A stretch of 32,000 nt of DNA. Source: Candidatus Hermodarchaeota archaeon (GTDB lineage: Archaea; Asgardarchaeota; Heimdallarchaeia; Hodarchaeales; Hodarchaeaceae). Positions within the stretch are counted from its first letter, which is position 1. Each line of letters begins with the position of its first letter. The stretch is from NCBI GenBank assembly GCA_048886185.1, contig JBHLKY010000010.1:168526-200525 (forward strand). The letters are read 5' to 3'. The position numbers and the translations under genes are program-made. A model generated the notes under the pieces. It searched no databases. It was not told the origin of the DNA and saw nothing but the letters and a program-made list of their open reading frames with translations. Positions 17,296-31,803 of the stretch are shown here, one piece after another.

Positions 17296-17465
17296 TTAAT
17301 CATCTCCGTATGTTAAAAGCATGATAGTTTAATAGTAATTAATAAAAGAAGTTTTGGCAAATTCTTATTGCAAAAATAGGGAAAGTTCTAAGAACAAAAT
17401 ATCAAAACTTGCATTCTTTTCTTCATTATCAAATAATCTACAAACTCTATATAGGATTAGATGAC

Positions 17466-18431
17466 ATGGATAGCCTTGATAAGCTCATTTTGCAAGTACT
17501 TTCAAATAATTGCAGAATATCATACTCCGAACTGGCACGAAAGGCCAAAGTCTCCCCTAATACAATTAAAAACCGCATCCAAAATTTGATCAATCAAAAA
17601 ATCATATTAGGATTTACTATCCAATTCAATCCAGCTCTTTTGAAGTTTAGTACAGCAATTATCTCCTTTCAATTTTCAAATCAAATTTCAGAGGAAACAA
17701 TTAATCGGATTGGTAATTATTCATTAGTTTCTGCGGTCGGTGTGTCCTTAAATTCTGGTTTTGTAGTAGCTTTGTATCAAAGTAATGAAGAATTGGCCCA
17801 GTTTAGTGATCACTTGCATTCTCTTGGTAATTTAACTGATCTCGAAATCTTACCTATCCTATTACCATTAACAGTTGATACAACTAAACCGAAGGATAGA
17901 CTTGAGAGTTTACAACCAATTGATTGGTTACTTCTTTATCACCTACGTGTGAACGGGAGGATGTCATTAAGTAAATTAGCAAAAAAAACCCATCTTAGTG
18001 TTAAAACAATCAAAAAAAGACTAAATTCACTGAATAAACGAAAAATGATTCATACAACTATTTTAATGAATCCTGGAGCGATTTCAAAAGGATTAATGGT
18101 AATTTTCGTCTTAGAACTTCCCAAAATTACTAGAGAAGTTCGACATTCAATAGAAAAGATGATTCGCAATGTCCACGAGGATAATTTTTGGGTTTCGTGG
18201 CAGGTGGTTGATAGACCTATAATCCTGATTGGTTTCCAAGTTGCAAATGTTCATGAAGTAAAAATAATTCAAGAGGATATTTTAAAACTTATACCAGAAT
18301 GTGTAATGAGAAAACATATGATTGGCGGAGACATGAAGTATTTTCCTGATGTTACTGATCAATTGCTTGAAGATAAAAGAAATCAAGGATGGTTTTCATC
18401 AGAACTTTGGGAACGAGAGTTAAATTCCTAA
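17466..18431 (+). CDS. Tandem (double) Lrp/AsnC-family regulator
   Basis: Two HTH_AsnC signatures (LDKLILQVLSNNCRISYSELARK...; IDWLLLYHLRVNGRMSLSKLAKK...); start set at MDSLD. Confidence 0.88.
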   Translation: MDSLDKLILQVLSNNCRISYSELARKAKVSPNTIKNRIQNLINQKIILGFTIQFNPALLKFSTAIISFQFSNQISEETINRIGNYSLVSAVGVSLNSGFVVALYQSNEELAQFSDHLHSLGNLTDLEILPILLPLTVDTTKPKDRLESLQPIDWLLLYHLRVNGRMSLSKLAKKTHLSVKTIKKRLNSLNKRKMIHTTILMNPGAISKGLMVIFVLELPKITREVRHSIEKMIRNVHEDNFWVSWQVVDRPIILIGFQVANVHEVKIIQEDILKLIPECVMRKHMIGGDMKYFPDVTDQLLEDKRNQGWFSSELWERELNS

Positions 18432-21466: not shown

Positions 21467-22693
21467 ATGATACATAAAGGTGCAAACTTCTTGAGTTTTA
21501 AGAGAATTAATACTCGTTCTAATGAACTTTCATCTTTAACTCTTGCTTTTAAAGCTCATAGAAGTCGATTTAAGAGATCATTTCAAATGATTCTTGATCG
21601 GAAGAGTCCTATAGAATTAAAACAATATCCAGATGAATTTCTCAATGCATTCAACAACATAAAATCTCCAGGAGTTGCATTAAAGCATTATTATAGGCTA
21701 ATTTTGTTGTTATTCCTAGCTAAGGATGACTTCACAGATCTGAATAAGAATGAAATAGATATAATATTCAAGGAGGTCGGAGTTGAATTATCCATCGATG
21801 TGTGGAAAAAATTAACAGGGCATTTAAGCAATGATTCTGATAATCTTCTGTACAAAATAAGGTTGGGGAAAGACACCAGATTATTATTTTCCTCTAATAA
21901 AGATTTAATTAAGATAATGACGAGATTATTAACAAATTCTCAATCTATTGAACCTCCTCATGACTATTCATTAGCCATATTTAGTAAATCAGCTCCTAAG
22001 GATAAAAATAACGTTGATTATTGTTTAGATTTTTCTAATTACTTCAAAGAAGGTTTACCATCTGAAGATCAATGGTTAATTATAGAGGACGAATTAACAA
22101 CTACAATTGAAACAATTTATGAAACTCACTTTGAAACAACACTTTTATTAAAAGAGTGTAAGCCTCATCCCTCTCTCTCTTTCATTCTAGGACATTCAGC
22201 TAATTATTTTGAGGGTTTGAAGTTATATATGTATCAGAATGGTCAATATTGGAAATACGAAAAGATAAATGAGAATATTCGTGCCTCTAATCACTGGAAT
22301 ATTTCTACAAAATATAGAAAACCTTTAAATGATGATGAAATTAATGTTTTAATAAGTGTAAGCGATCCAATTATACGATATGCCGAGAAGTATCTTCAAA
22401 AAGATAGAGAGGATACCAAATTCACTGTTCACTTTTCAATTAAACCTGAACCACAAGTAAACAGCATCACCGATCAAGATGATGCACTGAGAAAAGTTGA
22501 TGCTATTTACACGTATCTAACGCGACTTAAAACGAAGATCCCTTATATTAAGGTTCATTTATTTATTTGGGCCCAAGCTGCTTTCATTTCATTACTTGGA
22601 ATGAGACTTTCCTCTGTTGCCCTTGTTCAACTATATGAATTTGATCAAAAAACAGGAAATTTTGAACCTAGCCTATTACTAGATCGTTATTAA
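21467..22693 (+). CDS. SAVED-domain protein with an unassigned (winged-helix-like) N-terminal domain
   Basis: Residues ~166-406 show SAVED hallmarks: LDFSNYF, W, HPSLSFILG, YQNGQYW, VLISVS..I, VHLFIWAQAAFISLLG..L, VQLYEFDQKTGNFEPSLLL. Start uncertain (21467 or 21587). Confidence 0.82.
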   Translation: MIHKGANFLSFKRINTRSNELSSLTLAFKAHRSRFKRSFQMILDRKSPIELKQYPDEFLNAFNNIKSPGVALKHYYRLILLLFLAKDDFTDLNKNEIDIIFKEVGVELSIDVWKKLTGHLSNDSDNLLYKIRLGKDTRLLFSSNKDLIKIMTRLLTNSQSIEPPHDYSLAIFSKSAPKDKNNVDYCLDFSNYFKEGLPSEDQWLIIEDELTTTIETIYETHFETTLLLKECKPHPSLSFILGHSANYFEGLKLYMYQNGQYWKYEKINENIRASNHWNISTKYRKPLNDDEINVLISVSDPIIRYAEKYLQKDREDTKFTVHFSIKPEPQVNSITDQDDALRKVDAIYTYLTRLKTKIPYIKVHLFIWAQAAFISLLGMRLSSVALVQLYEFDQKTGNFEPSLLLDRY

Positions 22694-22847
22694 CAATAAC
22701 TATCAATCAAAATCAATACAATCTTTTTTAGTATTCATTCTAGGCATCTATTTTTTTTTACATGAACTATAACACATATGCCTTAGATAAGGAGATTCTC
22801 ATGATTAAATGCCTATAAATGACATAAAAAAGCTTTCTATTTTTTTT

Positions 22848-22980
22848 GCACTGTATCGCACTTTATTGAACTTGAAATATCTGCTTTATTTTTCTCTATA
22901 AAGAAATTTAACAAAATACTTCTTTGTTTAAAGTATAGAAAGGGTTTTTTCTATAGTACTAAAATTGCACATGTTCGCAC
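22848..22980 (+). promoter_or_regulatory. Pair of GCAC-N6-GCAC direct-repeat boxes (copy A)
   Basis: GCACTGTATCGCAC at 22848-22861 and GCACATGTTCGCAC at 22967-22980, 119 bp apart; both conserved in copy B. Confidence 0.65.
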
Positions 22981-23028
22981 CACTTATTTAAAACCATAAA
23001 ACTTAAATATATTTCTGAATAAGATATA

Positions 23029-23054
23029 TATTGACCTGGAATCATTGGTCAATA
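23029..23054. promoter_or_regulatory. TTGACC-N10-GGTCAA palindrome about 25 nt downstream of a TTAAATA box (copy A)
   Basis: TATTGACC/GGTCAATA arms; same core and spacing in copy B. Confidence 0.65.
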
Positions 23055-23080
23055 CCATTAGATTAATAAAGGTGATAAAC

Positions 23081-23146
23081 ATGGCAGATAAAGAGAAGAA
23101 AACAAAAACAAAAAAACCACGAGCTAAAAAAACAAAGAAGAAATAA
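23081..23146 (+). CDS. 21-aa Lys-rich micropeptide MADKEKKTKTKKPRAKKTKKK (copy A)
   Basis: AAGGTGA RBS 5 nt before the ATG; near-identical paralog at 31325-31387. Confidence 0.75.
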   Translation: MADKEKKTKTKKPRAKKTKKK

Positions 23147-23202
23147 TTTAGCTAAAGAATAGGTGATTTTTAAAATAATTTTTTTTTAAAAGGGTGATTG
23201 AT

Positions 23203-23322
23203 ATGAGAAAGGGACCAAAAAAGAAGCCAATCTATGAAGAAGAAGAAGAGGAAGAAGACTGGGAGGACGAGGACGACGATTGGGACGATGAAGACGAAGA
23301 TTGGGATGAAGAGGATAATTAA
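23203..23322 (+). CDS. 39-aa basic-head / acidic Trp-repeat micropeptide MRKGPKKKPIYEEEEEEEDWEDEDDDWDDEDEDWDEEDN (copy A)
   Basis: GGGTGA RBS 6 nt before the ATG; paralog at 31159-31272 with synonymous changes and only in-frame indels. Confidence 0.8.
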   Translation: MRKGPKKKPIYEEEEEEEDWEDEDDDWDDEDEDWDEEDN

Positions 23323-23341
23323 TCGTTTTAAAATTTTACTT

Positions 23342-23379
23342 GAGGTGAAATTTCCCCTTTATTAGGGGAACTCCACCTC
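23342..23379 (+). terminator. 3' hairpin of module copy A (terminator/stability element)
   Basis: GAGGTG/CACCTC outer stem and TTCCCCT/AGGGGAA inner stem with a TTATT loop, between convergent genes. Confidence 0.6.
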
Positions 23380-23403
23380 TATTTCTTAAATACATACACT
23401 AGC

Positions 23404-24246
23404 TTATAAATGGTCTTCAAGCCATTCCTTCAAATCTATTAAAACTTGGTTACGACCAGGTTGTGGTTCGTTATAAACTTCGTGATATAATCCTTCATAA
23501 TATTTTAGCTGTTTATCAGAAACCGTTATGTATGAAAACAGCTTTACCGGGTCAAGAGTGAGTTTGTCAAGTTTTCCGGATTGAACAAGGATAGGGAGTT
23601 GGATTTTTGATAATGATTCAGGAAGCTTTTTGCTGACCTTCAGATATTCTGCTCCAAGACGATAAGTTACAAATGTAAATACTAATGGATCGTTCTTGTA
23701 GGCTTCAACGACTTTAGGATCACTAGAAATATCGTCAGCTAAGTTAGTATTGACCTTTCCTTTCGGTCTAATTTTTGACAATAGTCCTGAGAGTAGGACT
23801 ACTAATGGATTAACCTTACTTGTGGCAGGATAGCCAAATCCTGAGAAAATAACTCCTTTTAGCTCCTTGGAATATTTAATTGCATACTCAATAGCAATTA
23901 TAACACCCATTGAGTGACCTAACAAGAAAAGCGGAACATTTACCTGTTCTTCCTTGATAAGATGAGTAAATTTCTTTGCATCCTGAGAATAGTCGTTAAA
24001 ACTATTCACATAACCCCTTATGCCCTCTGATTTTCCATGGCCCCGTAGATCATTACAGTAGACAATAAAATTATTTGGTACCAAGGAATTTACCACGTTC
24101 ATGTATCGAGAACTATGTTCTGCTAATCCATGCACAATCTGAAGAATAGCTTTCGGTTTTCCATCTGGTTCCCATACTTGATAATATAAATTGAGGCCAT
24201 CATCAGTTGTAAAATGATCGTCTCTATGTTTCATGATTCTTCCCAT
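23404..24246 (-). CDS. Lysophospholipase / monoacylglycerol lipase-like alpha/beta hydrolase
   Basis: IVHGLAEHSSRY, DLRGHGKS, GHSMG, GKLD, YHEVYNE. Confidence 0.92.
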   Translation of the reverse strand: MGRIMKHRDDHFTTDDGLNLYYQVWEPDGKPKAILQIVHGLAEHSSRYMNVVNSLVPNNFIVYCNDLRGHGKSEGIRGYVNSFNDYSQDAKKFTHLIKEEQVNVPLFLLGHSMGVIIAIEYAIKYSKELKGVIFSGFGYPATSKVNPLVVLLSGLLSKIRPKGKVNTNLADDISSDPKVVEAYKNDPLVFTFVTYRLGAEYLKVSKKLPESLSKIQLPILVQSGKLDKLTLDPVKLFSYITVSDKQLKYYEGLYHEVYNEPQPGRNQVLIDLKEWLEDHL

Positions 24247-24671
24247 ATCCTGCTTTTCAAAATAATTGAAAAAACAATTGGTATAATTATTTACTCTCTG
24301 ATTTTCCCCTTAGTATATTTTTCTTAATCTTGTTAAAATACTTTCAATCGACCCCTAAGTTTCCCTAATTGTGAAATTTCTGCTATTTTTTATCTTTCTT
24401 AAAGGAAAATAAGAAATGATTACAGTAAATAGAATTCTCCAAAATAAATATGGGGGAAATAAAGCTCATCAGATTTGACGTTCCTTCATACCTTTTTATT
24501 TTTGGAAAATGCTAGAGATCAGGATTTTATCAGAATTTTTGATATTAATTAGTCTGTAAAATATTCTGAAAGTATTAGAGATGATATTTCGAATATTGAG
24601 AATTAAAAGATGGAGTTAACTCTTTTGTAAAACTATATAAATACCTAAATTGTAGCGAACTAGATCTTAAC

Positions 24672-25496
24672 ATGCAATCTGATATGTTTAATTTTCCTGT
24701 AGAAATAAAAAAGCTTGATTGGCCATTTAATTCTAATTTTAATGAAAATGAGGTTCGACAACTGCTTAATGAATTTGGAGGAACTGCACAATATCAAGTG
24801 AAGGAAGCTCATTTTAATTTCTATGAATTTTCTCGTATAAGCTTAAGCCTCAGTCAACCTGCTATTGTACTCTTTCTACCAGAAAAAGGTTATTATTCTA
24901 TTAAACCATTTGCTTACCCTCCAGCAATCACCCTTTCTTTGAAAAAACCTCCAATAAACTTAGCAAATTATCATCGAATGAGAATTCAACACTTAATCCA
25001 TTCTCTTGGAGAGCATTTCCCCGAAACAGAAATGTTAGAATCAAAATCTGGAGATCTTCTAATAATTTTTCAAAAATTCTTATTTTATCCAATCTGTCAG
25101 TTCAACACGATTCAACAAATCAGCCAATTAATCGAAATTCTTTGGTTAGCATCTAGAGCCAGGATATTACTCGATTATAATCAAAGCCATTGGCTAGTCT
25201 CAGAAGTGGAATACATCTACTATGTGGACACAGATTACATCGGACACTCATATATTGACCTTGATAGGTGTCTTTTTGAAAATTTGAATCAATCACTCGC
25301 TTTTTTTACATCAGAAAATGTTGGTTTACTACCTCTAGCCATTGATAATTTTTCTGAAAGTGATGAAACTCAAACGCGTTTTGTCAATAGATTAAAAAAA
25401 GCTCTAAAGAAATTAATAGAAAACTGGGATATTGGAAAGTTGTCGGAAGAGAATAAACGGAAATTAGAAGTGTTTAACAAGATTGTTCAGGCCTAA
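24672..25496 (+). CDS. Hypothetical protein, possibly a divergent protein-kinase-like fold
   Basis: 274-aa ORF; LLDYNQSHWLV...YYVDTD loosely matches the DxxxxN(ilv)...iD kinase motifs. Confidence 0.6.
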   Translation: MQSDMFNFPVEIKKLDWPFNSNFNENEVRQLLNEFGGTAQYQVKEAHFNFYEFSRISLSLSQPAIVLFLPEKGYYSIKPFAYPPAITLSLKKPPINLANYHRMRIQHLIHSLGEHFPETEMLESKSGDLLIIFQKFLFYPICQFNTIQQISQLIEILWLASRARILLDYNQSHWLVSEVEYIYYVDTDYIGHSYIDLDRCLFENLNQSLAFFTSENVGLLPLAIDNFSESDETQTRFVNRLKKALKKLIENWDIGKLSEENKRKLEVFNKIVQA

Positions 25497-25800
25497 CATT
25501 TTTAGTGTCAATAGCGAGTAATTGAGCTCAATTATTCTTTAGTTTATTTATTGAAGTAAAAGGAAGACGCACAGAACTGTCTGCATTTTTAATCATCTAG
25601 TTCCTTAAGCTTTTAAGAATAGTATAATATATATAATTTCTCTTAATCCTGTATTATTGAAATTTTAGTCTTTTCTTTTCCAAAATTTACCATTTGTTCT
25701 TCCCTGTGAACTTTACAGCTGTGAACATTTTATTGTTTTCATAATCTTTTAAAGATAGGATCTCATTGGCTATATACCCCTTATTATGATCTCACTATGA

Positions 25801-26358
25801 ATGTTGGTTAATCAAATGCTTGATACGAATGAAACTGTAGGAGTCCACTTGGAAGGATTTGCCTTTGGAATGACTGATGGGATTATATGCTTTCTTGGAA
25901 TAATTATCGGAGTAGCTCAGGCAACACGGGATCCTAAGATGGTTATAATTGCTGGTATAGTTGGTGGTATTGCGGATGCTTTTGGTAACTCCATAGGTTT
26001 CCTTATCTCCCAGATAACTGAACAAAGTATTCAAATGCATCAAAAAGAGGATTTAGGACAAGAAGTTCGGATTCATAGTCAAGGAGAAGTAATATTTAGT
26101 GGCATATTCTCTTTTATTGCGACAATCATAACCTTAGTATTGCTTATCGGACCATATTTCTTCATCGATGATTTCTATCTAGCTATGTTTGTTACATTTA
26201 TTTTAGGAGTATTGTCACTATTCCTCTTAGGTAGGTATGTGGCTAAGATTAGCAAGAAAGATCAGTTAAAAATGGGTTTATTATATGCAATAATAGGGAT
26301 AACAGGTGCAATTTTCGCTTTTATGATTGGAAGTTTGTTAAATCAGATTATTCAATAA
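25801..26358 (+). CDS. VIT1/CCC1-family metal (Fe/Mn) transporter
   Basis: FGMTDGII, AGIVGGIADAFGNSIGFLISQITE; about 5 TM segments. Confidence 0.85.
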   Translation: MLVNQMLDTNETVGVHLEGFAFGMTDGIICFLGIIIGVAQATRDPKMVIIAGIVGGIADAFGNSIGFLISQITEQSIQMHQKEDLGQEVRIHSQGEVIFSGIFSFIATIITLVLLIGPYFFIDDFYLAMFVTFILGVLSLFLLGRYVAKISKKDQLKMGLLYAIIGITGAIFAFMIGSLLNQIIQ

Positions 26359-26672
26359 TCTTAAACGGTTTAATCTGAAGTTTTATAAAATAAGGATTAA
26401 AATTACCAAAAAATTAACTAAAAGCTTCAATAGGATCTATATTATGTAAGGTAATTGTACCGTCGTAATTTAAAAAAGTCAATATTTCTATAATATCCAT
26501 GACCCTTTCCTCAGATTGAGGTGCTTTTGATTCCTTTTTCATTTGATCGTCATTTAGAACATGGATTTCTTTCTTTATAAATTTAATTAAATGGAATTCA
26601 GAAAAAATTCACTTGACAGATATTGACACATTAAGATAACAATAAGAAGTAAGCAAGATTTTAAAGATTCAA

Positions 26673-27962
26673 GTGTTGAGAGTGAATAAAATACGGTTAA
26701 AAAACGCGTTATCAGTTTTTATTTTCCTTATTTTTATATTTAAAGTGTCTGGTTATTTAGGTTCCCCCGTATATAATGTTATAATGAATAATTCCTATTC
26801 AGGTTTTAGAGGTGTTAATTTAGGTAATTTTTTAGAAGCACCAAATGAAGGAGATTGGAGTAATGGGTTATTAATTCAAGAAAAACACTTTAATCGGATA
26901 AAATCGGCAGGATTCAACCTTGTGCGTATTCCTATTCGTTGGAATGCTCATGCTTTGGATATTTCTCCTTATACTATTGATGGTTCCTTTTTTGATAGAG
27001 TTGATTGGGTAATTAATCAAGGTATTTTAAGAAATTTGTCTATTATAATCAATATTCATCATTATAATGAGTTAATGGCTGACCCTGAAGGCCATAAGGA
27101 TCGTTTCCTTAGCTTATGGCAACAAGTTTCCCATCATTATCAGAATTATTCCAATGCATTGATTTTTGAAGTTTTAAATGAGCCTCATGATAATTTGAAT
27201 AATTCCCTATGGAATCAATACCTAAAAGAAGTGATTGGTGTTATTCGTCAAACAAACCCCGCTAGAACACTGATAATAGGTCCCACAAATTGGAATAATC
27301 TTTGGGCACTAAATGACCTTATACTTCCTCAAAACGACTCCAACATAGTAGTCACTTTTCATTTTTATTCTCCTTTTGAATTTACACACCAAGGAGCTGA
27401 ATGGGTTTCAGGAAGTAACGAATGGTTAGGAACCAATTGGACTAGATCTCAACCTGAAATGGATGCCATTAATTATGAATTTGACATTGCAATAAATTGG
27501 GCTAGAGTAAATAACAAGAGCTTATTTTTGGGTGAATTCGGAGCATATCAATACGCTTACATAAATGGGCGTATTGAATGGACAAGCTTTGTACGTGCAA
27601 AGGCTGAATCATGCCCTGAAATGTGGGGTTGGGCCTACTGGGAGTTTTGTTCTGGTTTTGGAATCATGGATAGTAGTCTAAGTTACTGGTACATTGGATT
27701 AGTGGGCGCTCTGCTTCCAGATAGTCCTTTGATTGTGACTACTACGACTTATTTCTCCTCTGCAGCACCTAGTTCGCTTCCTATAGAGTCTAATACTAGT
27801 CATAAATCATCTAAAACAAGTGTTGAAGCTGATCATACATCCACCTCTCAATCTAATATTTCGTCAGGGTCTACTACCCTGGAAATACTACCTATTCTTG
27901 TTTTAAACTTCATTCTCACCATATTTTATACAAAAAGAAGAACTAAAAATCAAAGGAAGTAA
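26673..27962 (+). CDS. Glycoside hydrolase family 5 (endoglucanase/mannanase-like), C-terminally anchored
   Basis: RGVNLGN, VRIPIRW, INIHHY, LNEP (acid/base), HFYSPFEFTHQGAEW, LGEFG (nucleophile), WAYWEF; S/T linker, TM, basic tail. Confidence 0.95.
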   Translation: MLRVNKIRLKNALSVFIFLIFIFKVSGYLGSPVYNVIMNNSYSGFRGVNLGNFLEAPNEGDWSNGLLIQEKHFNRIKSAGFNLVRIPIRWNAHALDISPYTIDGSFFDRVDWVINQGILRNLSIIINIHHYNELMADPEGHKDRFLSLWQQVSHHYQNYSNALIFEVLNEPHDNLNNSLWNQYLKEVIGVIRQTNPARTLIIGPTNWNNLWALNDLILPQNDSNIVVTFHFYSPFEFTHQGAEWVSGSNEWLGTNWTRSQPEMDAINYEFDIAINWARVNNKSLFLGEFGAYQYAYINGRIEWTSFVRAKAESCPEMWGWAYWEFCSGFGIMDSSLSYWYIGLVGALLPDSPLIVTTTTYFSSAAPSSLPIESNTSHKSSKTSVEADHTSTSQSNISSGSTTLEILPILVLNFILTIFYTKRRTKNQRK

Positions 27963-28026
27963 ATATCCACTTAAATGGATTATTTATCGAATAGGGCTCT
28001 CAGAAGGGAGTACAATGAATTTATTG

Positions 28027-28260
28027 TTATTGCTTATAATCTAAACTCTTTATATATATAATAGTTCCTGTTGTAAAAAACGCTACACCAAGTAAGCCAA
28101 AAAAATTGGTACTAGCCAAAGCGCCAATTGTTTCAGAACTGATTGCTTCAGTCATATACATAAAACTAATCAAAAAAACTATTAAACCAATAACCCAACC
28201 GATTATTCCAATAATTTTTAAAATATATTTCTCATTTTCGATTACAGGCACTTTTTCCAC
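28027..28260 (-). CDS. Small two-TM hypothetical membrane protein
   Basis: 77 aa, GTG start, two hydrophobic helices. Confidence 0.55.
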   Translation of the reverse strand: MEKVPVIENEKYILKIIGIIGWVIGLIVFLISFMYMTEAISSETIGALASTNFFGLLGVAFFTTGTIIYIKSLDYKQ

Positions 28261-28586
28261 CCAAGATCAGATATAATACAGAGTGGATATTATAATCCAA
28301 TGGATTTTGTGAATTTACTAGTTCTTAAATTTTTTTATGAATTCACTGTGATTGGGATTTGGCCCCAAATCTCTTCTTTTTTTCTAAAAAAAATAGATTA
28401 CACTTAAATACAGGCAAGAAAAACCTTATGTAGAACCAAAATCTGCTTTTAAGAAGTAAAAATGTCGAATGGAACAGTCTGATGTCTCCTTTTTTTGAGA
28501 GTCTTAAGAATTGAAATCGTTAGCTAGTTTTGCTTTTTTTTGGTTGTAATTGAGGTTCTATTCGTATATAAAAAGAAGTGTAAAAA

Positions 28587-29093
28587 ATGTCAAGTTATAG
28601 TTCAGAAGAAACACATGACGTGAAAATCGAAAGCGTTAAACCCTTTGAAAAACGCCTAAATGTCGTTTTTATGGTTACAGAGAGAGGTGAAGAACGTGAG
28701 ATCAATAAACGAACGGGTGAAACGCATAGAGTGTGTGATTTCACTGTTGCAGATGAAACAGGGATTATCACTCTAACTCTTTGGAATGAAGATATTGATG
28801 TATTGAAAGAAGAAAATGTCTATAAATTATCAAATGGTTTTGCTAATGTATTTCAAAATTCCCTTAGACTATCAAAAGGAAAATTTGGAAGCATCGCTGA
28901 AGATTCGACTGTTTTTGAGGAAATAAACACAGACAATGATCGTTCCGCAGCACATGTAGATGATCCCCGTAGACAATCATACGGAAATAGAGGAGGAAGT
29001 TATCGATCCCAACAGTCATACGGATCATATGGAAGTGGACGTTCCTCTGGAGGATATGACAAACAGCGGTCTAATCGGCGTACTCGTTGGTAA
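28587..29093 (+). CDS. Single OB-fold single-stranded DNA-binding protein (archaeal SSB/RPA type)
   Basis: VADETGIITLTLWN, VYKLSNGFANVFQNSLRLSKGKFG; low-complexity R/G/S/Y tail. Confidence 0.9.
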   Translation: MSSYSSEETHDVKIESVKPFEKRLNVVFMVTERGEEREINKRTGETHRVCDFTVADETGIITLTLWNEDIDVLKEENVYKLSNGFANVFQNSLRLSKGKFGSIAEDSTVFEEINTDNDRSAAHVDDPRRQSYGNRGGSYRSQQSYGSYGSGRSSGGYDKQRSNRRTRW

Positions 29094-30219
29094 AAAGGAT
29101 CGATTTTAAATAGATTCAATAATTTAAATTTCAGTTCACTAATCAATGGATGTGTTCTTCGCGCCTAACAACAACCTGAAGCAGAGAAGGAACGGTAGGC
29201 TAGAAGAACATTCCTCCACACTTTTAATGGAGATCAATTGCATGTACTTTGAGAGACTTCAAATTCATTCATGAATTAAAAAAAATTTTGAAATATAGAA
29301 ATCTTTTCTCAACCCAACAGACGATTTATGATATGTATGGATTCATGGGAATGAGAGAAATGGCCAAAACTGCATGTTGTGCTGATATTAAAAGAAGGAT
29401 TTTTGGTTACAAGATTTAAGAATCCAGAACGGAAAATTAAGCCTGTCATTATTCTACACAACTATCAGCAAATCTTTTTTGGGAGGAATTCTGTAAAATA
29501 GAATCAGAAAATTCTATTTTAATCCTAGTAATTCAGTTAATTGATCAAGATAATTTATCATTCCATGTATAGCTCCTACTAGATAAAGAGATTTTGTGTG
29601 TGGAACAAGATAGATATCAAGATAAACCATAAAACACCTATGAGAACCCAAAGAAGCATCAATTGATGATCAATGAAGTGTTTCAAGACAAAGTAAATAG
29701 TGACAGTCAGAATCCCAACGGGTGTATTCATTCTTTCAACAACGCGGATTTGAAGGTACCCCCGAAAACCAATTTCTTACCAGAAACCATTTAACATTGC
29801 TTAGGTTAAAAAAAACTCTGATTATTGAAACTTGTATTTTTAAATTTTTGTATTCAATCAGAACACAAGTAAAAACATACGGAGGGTATCAATTACACAC
29901 AGAAGAATCTGAGATTCAAGTAACATCATTTGAGTTTGGACTTGTTACTCAATTCATTCTCATTAACTGAGAAATGTATCACAGGTTTTAATATTAATTA
30001 ACGGAAGAGGATGATTGATTCCTACAAAATGAATTCTCCAACATGTGGATGGAGGAGCCACAGATCGTCCGATCTAACGCCCCTCCACTACATTTTGCGA
30101 TTGGAAAGCGTAATTATCTTTTTAGAGATTTCTAAAATATTTTCTGGAGATCATTCATTTAAAATCTTCGTTAAGGGATGGATTAACACTAATAATTAGA
30201 AAATAGACAACTTCAAATT

Positions 30220-30615
30220 ATGATTACTATATTGACTCAACAATTGAGATCATTAGAAAAAATCCCTGCAGACGAGTTTGATGATCATATCCATTCATTA
30301 AATATCCCCTACCAACAATTCTCTTTTATTGATAAAGACTCTCTTTCTGCATTTAATTCTAAGTACAAAGAAATTAAGGACTTATTATTCAAGTCACATG
30401 AAAAACACGAAACAATAGAAGATATAATTAGAAACTCTATTCATTTAGCCATCTTTGGGGCTTTTTCGATGGATTAGGAAGGTAATGTTAATATTCCACA
30501 CAAACTTGGATTCAAAGAATCCTCCAAGAGGGATACAGTTGCAGATTGTCTAATTTGCATGATTGTCCATATGAAAAATTTTTTGAACTATAAATTGCAA
30601 AAGTTCCGCAAGTAG
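30220..30615 (+). pseudogene. Unidentified gene fragment with an internal TAG
   Basis: 85-aa track ORF; the same frame stays open for 45 further codons after TAG 30475-30477. Confidence 0.35.
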
Positions 30616-30645
30616 TGAAAATATCCTTCAAAGGTGAATGTATAA

Positions 30646-31071
30646 ATGGAAGAATCTCGTTCTCATGCCGTTATTGTGTCTAATGTTCATCGTGAATTTC
30701 GAATTGGTGAGATTACTGTTCATGCGCTTCGGGGGACTAATATGGAAGTCTCTGAAGGCGAATTTGTTATCGTGCTAGATCCAAGTGGATCTGGAAAATC
30801 AACATTGTTAAATCAAATTGGAGGGATAGACTCCCCAACTAAATGTAGTGTGAAGATCCATGGGGAGAATATAACAGACTGGCGTGGAGGGAAACTATCT
30901 GAATATCGTCGTAATAAGGTTGGTTGGATTTTTCAATTTTTTAATCTTATTCCTTCTTTAAGAGCATGGGAAAATGTCGCACTCGCTTTAGAGTTCAAAG
31001 GTGATCGAAAAGAGATATATAAGTTTTATAAAAAGAGAGATATTATGTACAAAAAAAAGGCCCTTATGTAA
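30646..31071 (+). pseudogene. Truncated LolD/MacB-type ABC transporter ATPase
   Basis: Walker A altered to DPSGSGKST; Q-loop FQFFNLIP..AWENV present; similarity ends near 31010, before the signature motif and Walker B. Confidence 0.85.
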
Positions 31072-31078
31072 TTAATAG

Positions 31079-31128
31079 AGGTGATTTTCCCTTAGTTAAC
31101 CCTAGCAAAGGGAAAGGGAAAATCACCT
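31079..31128 (-). terminator. 3' hairpin of module copy B
   Basis: Perfect 15-bp stem AGGTGATTTTCCCTT (31079-31093) / AAGGGAAAATCACCT (31114-31128) with a 20-nt loop. Confidence 0.7.
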
Positions 31129-31158
31129 TTGAAATTATTTCAATTTAGCAAAAAGAAG

Positions 31159-31272
31159 CTAATTATCCTCGTCATCCCAATCGTCGTCGTCTTCCCAATC
31201 CTCTTCTTCTTCTTCTTCTTCTTCATAGATTGGTTTCTTAGGAGGAACTTTCTTCTTTGGAGCGTATTTCAT
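31159..31272 (-). CDS. 37-aa basic-head / acidic Trp-repeat micropeptide MKYAPKKKVPPKKPIYEEEEEEEEDWEDDDDWDDEDN (copy B)
   Basis: AAGGTGA RBS 5 nt before the ATG; paralog of 23203-23322. Confidence 0.8.
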   Translation of the reverse strand: MKYAPKKKVPPKKPIYEEEEEEEEDWEDDDDWDDEDN

Positions 31273-31324
31273 ATTTTTCACCTTTTTCTAAATGTTTTTG
31301 ATAAAGATTTTCCTTGTAATTAGA

Positions 31325-31387
31325 CTATTTCTTTGTTTTTTTAGCTCGTGGTTTTTTTGTTTTTGCTTTCTTCTCTTTTTCTGCCAT
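31325..31387 (-). CDS. 20-aa Lys-rich micropeptide MAEKEKKAKTKKPRAKKTKK (copy B)
   Basis: AAGGTGA RBS 5 nt before the ATG; paralog of 23081-23146. Confidence 0.75.
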   Translation of the reverse strand: MAEKEKKAKTKKPRAKKTKK

Positions 31388-31418
31388 GTTTTTCACCTTT
31401 ATTGTTCATTTTGTGGTG

Positions 31419-31440
31419 TTGACCAATGGTTTATGGTCAA
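31419..31440. promoter_or_regulatory. TTGACC-N10-GGTCAA palindrome (copy B)
   Basis: TTGACC 31419-31424 and GGTCAA 31435-31440; minus-strand TTTAAATA box just upstream. Confidence 0.65.
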
Positions 31441-31490
31441 TGTAATACAATTTCAGATGTTTATTTAAACCTTATGGATTTAAGTGAAGG

Positions 31491-31622
31491 GTGCGGACGT
31501 GTGCGATCATAACAAAACAAAATACGTTAATATAATACTTTAAATGAAAGATAAAGTTATTAAATGACTTTTCAGAGAAAAATCACACAGTCTTCATTGT
31601 TCAGTGAAGTGCGGTACTGTGC
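31491..31622 (-). promoter_or_regulatory. Pair of GCAC-N6-GCAC boxes (copy B)
   Basis: Minus strand GCACACGTCCGCAC (31491-31504) and GCACAGTACCGCAC (31609-31622), 118 bp apart. Confidence 0.65.
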
Positions 31623-31803
31623 AAAAAGTATAACAGATTATTTCTTAACCTATTTTGTCATATTTAAGCATTGAATTATGAAAATCTATTGATCTAAGGT
31701 ATAAGTATAATAATCCATTTAAAAAACATCATCAATCACAAAGTCTAGGATGGATTTAGTTTTCATTCATTACCTAGTTTGACCTAAAGATAACATTCAT
31801 TAG

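Follow-up and report, generated by a model that had tools for sequence, protein, structure and literature searches.

A probable pair of oppositely charged micro-proteins encoded beside a SAVED-domain gene in a Hodarchaeales genus

We analyzed a 32,000-nt stretch of DNA (the window; G000:C10:168526-200525) from a genome of Candidatus Hermodarchaeota archaeon (G000; 4.84 Mb, 96% complete, 35% G+C). This organism belongs to Hodarchaeales, the archaeal lineage closest to eukaryotes, a placement with which the public names of close protein homologues agree. The window contains two inverted copies, A and B, of a compact cassette, in each of which an open reading frame (ORF) for a polycation of 20-21 amino acids (aa) precedes an ORF for a polyanion of 37-39 aa. 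Comparison of 12 cassettes makes it very likely that these two ORFs form a real coding pair. In our best model, a SAVED sensor with a novel helical N-terminal domain, encoded upstream, and the cassette downstream of it make up the two halves of an accessory module. The module is patchily distributed within one Hodarchaeales genus. A first-pass annotation of this DNA had reported the two inverted copies and the sizes and charges of the four peptides, all of which agree with the ORF list and the sequences. The linkage to SAVED, the paired GCAC boxes and the status of the copies as old paralogues go beyond that annotation.

Most of these genes escape gene callers, and Pfam, NCBIfam, PADLOC and PDB contain no family for either peptide. 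To our knowledge, no SAVED-type sensor has so far been linked to polyelectrolyte peptides encoded by genes instead of a nuclease, protease, NADase or pore, and the present system, if the model is true, would be the first one known. It would also mean that Asgard archaea possess dedicated modules in which disordered partners of extreme charge interact, a type of interaction investigated until now chiefly in chromatin proteins of eukaryotes. Both peptides are short enough for synthesis, and their binding, coacervation and effects on DNA are directly testable.

Two micro-genes in a conserved cassette

A repeat search of the window detected the cassettes as an inverted repeat with arms at 22838-23392 and 31065-31632, composed of blocks that are 71-96% complementary. 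Pairwise alignment widened the similarity to approximately 22735-23400 on the plus strand and 31745-31060 on the minus strand. The elements of the two cassettes are as follows.

22735..23400, plus strand: cassette A, complete expression unit (repeat search, alignment and 12-cassette comparison)
22848..22861, plus strand: box 1 of cassette A (GCAC-N6-GCAC), followed by a conserved GAAC
22967..22980, plus strand: box 2 of cassette A, 119 nt past box 1 and about 22 nt ahead of the TATA-like box
23002..23009, plus strand: TATA-like box of cassette A, which reads CTTAAATA
23031..23052, plus strand: 5' leader hairpin of cassette A, TTGACC-N10-GGTCAA
23081..23146, plus strand: polycation ORF A, 21 aa, net charge +10, core KKPRAK; ribosome-binding site (RBS) at 23071-23075
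23203..23322, plus strand: polyanion ORF A, 39 aa, net charge -19, with a basic head, PIY, a Glu run and three (D/E)W units in this order; RBS at 23193-23197
23342..23379, plus strand: 3' hairpin of cassette A, arms GAGGTG...CACCTC around TTCCCC/GGGGAA
31060..31745, minus strand: cassette B, complete unit without a SAVED gene of its own (repeat search and alignment)
31609..31622, minus strand: box 1 of cassette B
31491..31504, minus strand: box 2 of cassette B, 118 nt past box 1
31462..31469, minus strand: TATA-like box of cassette B, which reads TTTAAATA
31419..31440, minus strand: 5' leader hairpin of cassette B
31325..31387, minus strand: polycation ORF B, 20 aa, net charge +9
31159..31272, minus strand: polyanion ORF B, 37 aa, net charge -12
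31079..31128, minus strand: 3' hairpin of cassette B

Additional cassettes were gathered by DNA and protein searches of relatives and from contigs encoding homologues of the upstream gene. The resulting set (n = 12) comprises copies A and B, the cassettes of G008 and G019, a tandem pair in G001 (G016 has the same pair), and the cassettes of six contigs from metagenomes or metagenome-assembled genomes (L041 and L043-L047); the five genomes all belong to the same genus. Both frames, their start codons and their RBSs are intact in all 12. The basic ORF encodes 20-23 aa with the core KKPRAK and a net charge of +8 to +11. The acidic ORF encodes 32-47 aa with a net charge of -9 to -19, and its product follows the pattern PKKKxxPKKP[IV]Y, a Glu run and then one to four (D/E)W units. 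RBSs were found at a constant distance from all ORFs (GGTGA in 22 of 24, GGCGA in the other 2); in the window, GGTGA lies exactly 5 nt upstream of all four ATGs, which sharpens the earlier figure of 5-6 nt.

The pattern of variation is that of coding sequence, most clearly for the acidic ORF. Changes at its codon positions 1/2/3 number 21/15/57 (57 of 93 at the third position; binomial p 3e-8), and those in the basic ORF number 14/9/20 (p 0.05). All indels in the cassette ORFs are in frame, including the length differences of 3, 15 and 21 nt between A and B, which had already been recognized as multiples of three. Mean pairwise identity is 0.83 and 0.77 for the ORFs, 0.59 for the spacer between them and 0.60-0.63 for the flanks, so that the spacer divergence first described for the window copies holds across the set. 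In addition, the acidic frame is the sole frame open in all 12 cassettes. Because both frames are intact throughout different genomes and contigs and the acidic frame alone is open in all, the cassette is not a product of chance. Judged by these sequence features, the acidic ORF is almost certainly a gene and the basic ORF very probably one. A 162-nt contig from a metatranscriptomic library, derived from a relative and 90% identical, covers 23076-23215 and thus runs from ORF 1 into ORF 2, a weak hint that the two share a transcript. Sequencing runs X5 and X6 also cover parts of the cassette, again from relatives, and run X1 may derive from the source sample.

Two other origins of the ORFs were rejected. 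Stops, starts and RBSs are in place in 12/12 cassettes, which rules out fragments of a larger gene; with its frames conserved in relatives, the two-gene micro-operon proposed in the first-pass annotation stands. Antisense ORFs were ruled out as well, given that the antisense frames of 58-64 aa in copy B have no counterpart in copy A. The earlier remark that the genes had been missed by the ORF track applies to the basic ORF and only partly to the acidic one. Public annotation calls some homologues of the acidic ORF as hypothetical genes of 32-45 aa, and the basic ORF is uncalled in 6/6 metagenome contigs, unless a 43-aa call that spans it in L044 (4550-4681) is an extended form. The most divergent cassette (L041:5658-5781) has a 124-nt inter-ORF spacer with a strong extra hairpin, and its acidic ORF has one Trp and ends with an Asp run plus a Tyr.

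The regulatory elements have a fixed layout, and the promoter-like elements and 3' hairpin noted earlier in A and B were indeed kept in both. Two GCAC-N6-GCAC boxes occur in 12/12 cassettes with a constant spacing of 118-119 nt; their half-sites are kept and the inner 6 nt vary, with a single A-for-G change in box 1 of L044 and L046. The GCAC-N5-CGCAC form occurs four times in the 4.84 Mb genome, always inside cassette A or B. Approximately 22 nt after the end of box 2 lies a TATA-like box, which reads TTTAAATA in 11/12 cassettes and CTTAAATA in cassette A, and which we infer to act as the archaeal promoter. Archaeal activators usually bind upstream of the TATA box, and the position of the two boxes upstream of this element suggests that an activator may bind there.

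Another 25-30 nt or so downstream is the leader hairpin (5-6 bp), which folds in 11/12 single-sequence predictions. Two of its base pairs show compensatory double changes, which occur in two cassettes, and G-U pairs are present in two sequences. The hairpin is followed by RBS 1, ORF 1, a poorly conserved spacer of 46-124 nt, RBS 2 and ORF 2. A strong 3' hairpin, whose arms resemble GGTGAT and ATCACC, closes each of the 12 cassettes. In all of them its 5' arm (GAGGTGAT) resembles a perfect RBS and its 3' arm (ATCACCTC) resembles the 3' end of 16S rRNA.

Over the core, copies A and B share 71% identity and are no closer to each other than to cassettes of other species, except for a 75-nt block over ORF 1 that is 96% identical. 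Such a distance, equal to that between orthologues of different species, marks them as old paralogues or separate acquisitions; the overall identity of 71% rules out both a recent duplication and an assembly duplicate. Contigs from the source sample break inside the shared 75-nt core, and the pairing of upstream with downstream cassette halves therefore depends solely on the genome assembly. No remnants of a SAVED gene were found beside copy B.

Association with a SAVED-domain gene

The gene directly upstream of cassette A is the only SAVED gene in G000.

21467..22693, plus strand: SAVED-domain sensor gene (Pfam, NCBIfam, PADLOC and Foldseek)

A co-oriented SAVED gene lies directly upstream of 10 of the 12 cassettes, and its orthologues are 62-84% identical. 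Conversely, a cassette follows every SAVED homologue with readable downstream DNA (in four genomes and six contigs, plus a partial case in L042). The two SAVED-free cassettes, copy B and the second tandem copy of G001/G016, still keep both boxes. Among the 400 Asgard genomes searched, this SAVED family was detected in one Hodarchaeales genus only, in 6 of its 22 genomes; the coding pattern KKP[IV]YEEEE was detected only in 5 of these 6, and a reversed control pattern gave no matches. Genes beyond SAVED and the cassette vary from contig to contig. We consider it fairly probable that the cassette and SAVED are functionally linked.

SAVED proteins of the module are 400-408 aa long and consist of a helical N-terminal region of approximately 180 aa and a SAVED domain at residues 154-406. 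The latter matched Pfam PF18145 (E 7.5e-18) and NCBIfam SAVED NF033611 (E 1.7e-27), and Foldseek retrieved Cap4, Cap5 and CalpL at E 2e-11. In PADLOC, the hits fall on the SAVED portion of effectors of the Cap4 type. One PADLOC SAVED-nuclease profile extends back to residue 87; otherwise, residues 1-150 are without a Pfam or PADLOC match. No effector domain of the nuclease, HNH, TIR, Lon or transmembrane kind was detected in the protein, nor a cyclase gene nearby or in the genome. A PDB sequence search with the profile of the N-terminal domain gave nothing usable, and an ESM Atlas search by features returned no usable match. AlphaFold2 models of the full protein and of the N-terminal domain alone assign this domain a pLDDT below 50 (43), and for this reason no fold search was made with it. 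Residues 94-141 show a helix-helix-hairpin-like pattern at the sequence level only; with neither a fold nor a helix-turn-helix (HTH) motif assigned, a DNA-binding role of this domain is a guess. Complex prediction for the SAVED protein and the acidic peptide gave a score of 0.09 against a mark of 0.32, which speaks neither for nor against binding, with a pLDDT below 50 for the acidic partner.

In both sequence and fold, the SAVED domain at the C-terminus is clearly related to those of CBASS Cap4/Cap5 and CalpL. In contrast to these, the present protein has no recognizable fused effector domain and no cyclase, and a conserved micro-operon comes after the gene instead. A different parallel is offered by Csa3, a CARF-wHTH transcription factor of type I-A/III CRISPR loci that responds to cyclic oligoadenylates (PMC9704534, PMC8699464). 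A class of proteins has been predicted in which SAVED or CARF is fused to a DNA-binding domain and governs effector genes further downstream; Csa3 is its characterized case (PMC9704534). Here, too, a cyclic-oligonucleotide sensor domain is encoded beside a promoter with conserved repeated boxes, the GCAC-N6-GCAC boxes being repeated at the candidate regulated promoter in all 12 cassettes; the logic by which a signal switches on neighboring genes is proposed here as well. However, the sensor is SAVED rather than CARF and lies at the C-terminus, the other domain has no recognizable HTH, no Cas10 or CD-NTase was found in this genome, and the genes thought to be regulated encode micro-proteins rather than Cas proteins.

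Known acidic proteins, further micro-ORF pairs and the PCNA tail

None of the four peptides matched Pfam (even at E 10) or NCBIfam; PADLOC, searched with the copy-A acidic peptide only, gave no match, and a PDB sequence search with the acidic profile gave nothing usable. The acidic profile was also used in a word-indexed protein search and in an exhaustive HMMER search of 1.8e9 representatives, both limited by low complexity, and the only relative retrieved was P0001. This 64-aa protein, encoded on an ENA contig of 717 nt, has a start resembling that of the acidic peptide and continues beyond the position where the stop usually lies. A pattern search of genome contigs yielded 599 matches, none of which was confirmed by tblastn. 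Literature searches found no description of such a peptide pair, nor of SAVED proteins in Asgard archaea.

Several eukaryotic proteins nevertheless offer partial likenesses. Prothymosin-alpha and linker histone H1 form a disordered polyelectrolyte complex in eukaryotes. Two disordered partners of extreme opposite charge (the acidic one with a pLDDT below 50 in the complex run) are shared with it, as are a Lys/Pro/Ala/Thr-rich polycation resembling an H1 tail and a Glu/Asp run in the polyanion. In contrast, the present peptides have no sequence homology to these proteins, are 5-10 times smaller and are encoded in a bicistronic micro-operon, and their binding to each other is putative; unlike prothymosin-alpha, the acidic peptide has its own basic head and regularly spaced Trp residues. 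DSS1/Sem1 (PF05160), which mimics DNA and binds several complexes, is likewise small, very acidic and disordered, with conserved Trp in acidic stretches. The peptides described here are about half as long, however, and there is no evidence of partners of the proteasome-lid or BRCA2 type; the PF05160 profile did not match them, and its best hit in a six-frame search of G000 (E 0.34) lay within an unrelated ORF of 693 aa. Trp within Asp/Glu runs also recalls the W-acidic motifs of eukaryotes, such as the A motif of WASP and cortactin, which targets Arp2/3, and the cargo motifs of kinesin light chain. This likeness is compositional only, and here the motif is repeated one to four times in a free micro-protein.

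Micro-ORF pairs of this kind are not confined to the SAVED-linked cassettes. Basic and acidic pairs without SAVED or GCAC boxes, with other promoters, occur in both gene orders: the basic ORF comes first in G012 and G006 (in the latter a TTG-start basic ORF, then the acidic ORF), and the acidic ORF comes first, followed by the basic one approximately 110 nt later, in G003, G014 and G008:C6. Since such pairs exist without SAVED, the basic function of the peptides does not need it. Stand-alone acidic-Trp micro-ORFs of 36-68 aa that contain DWDD(D/E)D were found in three other Asgard families (L093, L098-L103, L105 and L106), with no polycation partner beside them in the 9 loci. The further loci of the genus, and the PCNA gene considered below, are as follows.

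G000:C10:158147-158470 (L039:8148-8470): third basic/acidic locus of G000
L034:8027-8350, L035:879-1207, L097:1263-1569 and L036:6010-6310: further micro-ORF pairs in the genus
G000:C9:117111-118010 (L003:688-1587): PCNA gene, beside the gene for the small subunit of RFC

The third locus of G000, just upstream of a TFS/RPB9-like zinc-ribbon gene, consists of an intact ORF for a 22-aa polycation and, after it, an acidic Trp ORF interrupted by two in-frame stops. An intact orthologue of this locus is present in G012 (L037, approximately 3200-2945, minus strand).

Among G000 proteins of at least 60 aa, PCNA is the only one with an acidic stretch that holds at least two [DE]W[DE] units. Its C-terminal tail of 30-40 aa is acidic, with Tyr and (D/E)W repeats, and was present in 21/21 PCNA genes found in the genus, one subgroup having Tyr in place of Trp; it was absent from the two sampled sister genera of the order. 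The acidic-Trp motif common to tail and peptides offers a concrete way to approach this unexplained genus-wide PCNA extension.

Proposed mechanism and competing explanations

Our working model, which we hold tentatively, is that the cassette provides a signal-induced pair of disordered polyelectrolyte micro-proteins. The first-pass annotation had offered two hypotheses, a polyelectrolyte pair like histone H1 and prothymosin-alpha and a toxin/antidote pair, and either would fit the data. Each copy would be self-contained and probably inducible, with one short mRNA that carries both micro-proteins. In response to a cyclic (oligo)nucleotide signal, a dedicated DNA-binding factor would occupy the two boxes and activate the cassette. 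The analogy of Csa3 makes the SAVED protein our first candidate for this factor, and we regard its binding to the boxes as doubtful. The two peptides, produced at the same time, would work as a polyelectrolyte pair: the polycation may bind nucleic acids or acidic-aromatic tails, and the acidic peptide may bind, buffer or deliver the polycation via Trp-Lys cation-pi contacts. That the two peptides act on each other is plausible without being the likelier outcome. Alternatively, the acidic peptide may compete with the look-alike acidic-Trp tail of PCNA. The most far-reaching version, in which a cyclic-nucleotide alarm sensor controls a charged peptide pair whose acidic member mimics the PCNA tail, as a switch on replication or chromatin and a forerunner of prothymosin/H1-, DSS1- or W-acidic-type systems, appears improbable.

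Several observations weigh against this model or parts of it. The evidence for the coding pair is sequence comparison plus an RNA hint, and the hint itself is a single contig from a relative, from a library that may also contain DNA. For the basic ORF, the bias toward third codon positions is marginal, and in 11/12 cassettes the +1 frame of this ORF is open as well. Domain searches and structure prediction gave the N-terminal domain of SAVED no fold assignment and no HTH family match. Searches of the 96%-complete genome for SMODS (PF18144), Cmr2 (TIGR02577) and Csm1 (TIGR02578) found none of them, which leaves no CD-NTase or Cas10 as a candidate source of the signal. A GCAC box was also looked for upstream of the SAVED gene, and none was found. 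Finally, adjacency of the cassette and SAVED could reflect hitch-hiking rather than function.

The same observations can be read in other ways. The peptides could be a charge-neutralizing toxin/antidote pair, serving as the killing or arrest arm of SAVED-triggered abortive infection, with a harmful polycation that coats nucleic acids, ribosomes or membranes and a polyanion that restrains it until it is freed by a signal or by differential decay. Such a pair would fit the small size, adjacency and shared orientation of the two genes, each with its own RBS, as well as their patchy distribution, variable flanks and repeated duplication; an MNT/HepT toxin-antitoxin pair adjoins one module, and SAVED proteins normally drive abortive-infection effectors (PMC9704534). 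However, no match to toxin-antitoxin or defense families was obtained, the polycation lacks the hydrophobic or amphipathic face typical of membrane-active peptides, and the rest of the window contains ordinary metabolism and transport genes and no defense island. In addition, a toxic polycation is hard to reconcile with the third G000 locus, which keeps its basic ORF despite the decayed acidic ORF, and we consider this explanation unlikely. Somewhat less credit is given to the view that the peptides are polyelectrolytes associated in a general way with the nucleoid, ribosomes or condensates and that SAVED was merely co-transferred with them. The SAVED-free pairs of the genus and the stand-alone acidic-Trp micro-proteins of three other Asgard families speak for it, but SAVED adjoins the cassette in every readable case while all other flanks differ, and the cassette has a dedicated two-box regulatory region that is unique in the genome.

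If the acidic peptide were instead a free mimic of the genus-specific PCNA tail, it would compete for tail binders and tune replication or repair, with the polycation as a helper or second competitor. PCNA alone among the larger G000 proteins has the Y-acidic-(D/E)W-repeat pattern, and the tail is kept in all PCNA genes found in the genus and lacking in both sampled sister genera. Yet the resemblance is one of low complexity and may have arisen by convergence, the tail has no known partner, genomes with and without the cassette are not distinguished by their type of PCNA tail, and acidic-Trp micro-proteins also occur in other Asgard families. We give this reading little probability. It is very improbable that the unit acts at the RNA or DNA level, be it as a small structured RNA, as a leader whose upstream ORFs are regulatory or as a mobile repeat, with the peptides as by-products. 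Conservation of the 5' and 3' hairpins, in part with compensatory changes, the high nucleotide-level conservation of the basic ORF and the multiplication of the cassette are consistent with that idea. Third-position bias, conserved amino-acid motifs and a spacer and loops that diverge freely speak against it. Moreover, there is no same-strand downstream gene to regulate (the next gene is convergent for G000 copy A and differs between contigs), Rfam and tRNA scans of the window gave no match, the only long inverted repeats are the cassettes themselves, and neither terminal inverted repeats at the ends of the unit nor a transposase domain among the neighbors were detected in the window.

Three other genes of the window were recorded in the vicinity of the cassettes. 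A gene 3 kb upstream of SAVED (17409-18431, plus strand) encodes a 340-aa protein with two AsnC/MarR-type winged-helix domains and is not kept beside the module in other genomes. Next to cassette B, a truncated gene for an ABC-transporter ATPase (30646-31071, plus strand; residues 34-145 of approximately 341) ends at the 3' edge of the cassette; its missing part was not found in the window, and the preceding segment (29100-30640) has no ORF of at least 100 aa and therefore looks like decaying DNA. Between the two cassettes (28587-29093, plus strand) is a gene for an OB-fold protein similar to SSB/RPA, with a C-terminal tail rich in Gly, Ser, Tyr and Arg.

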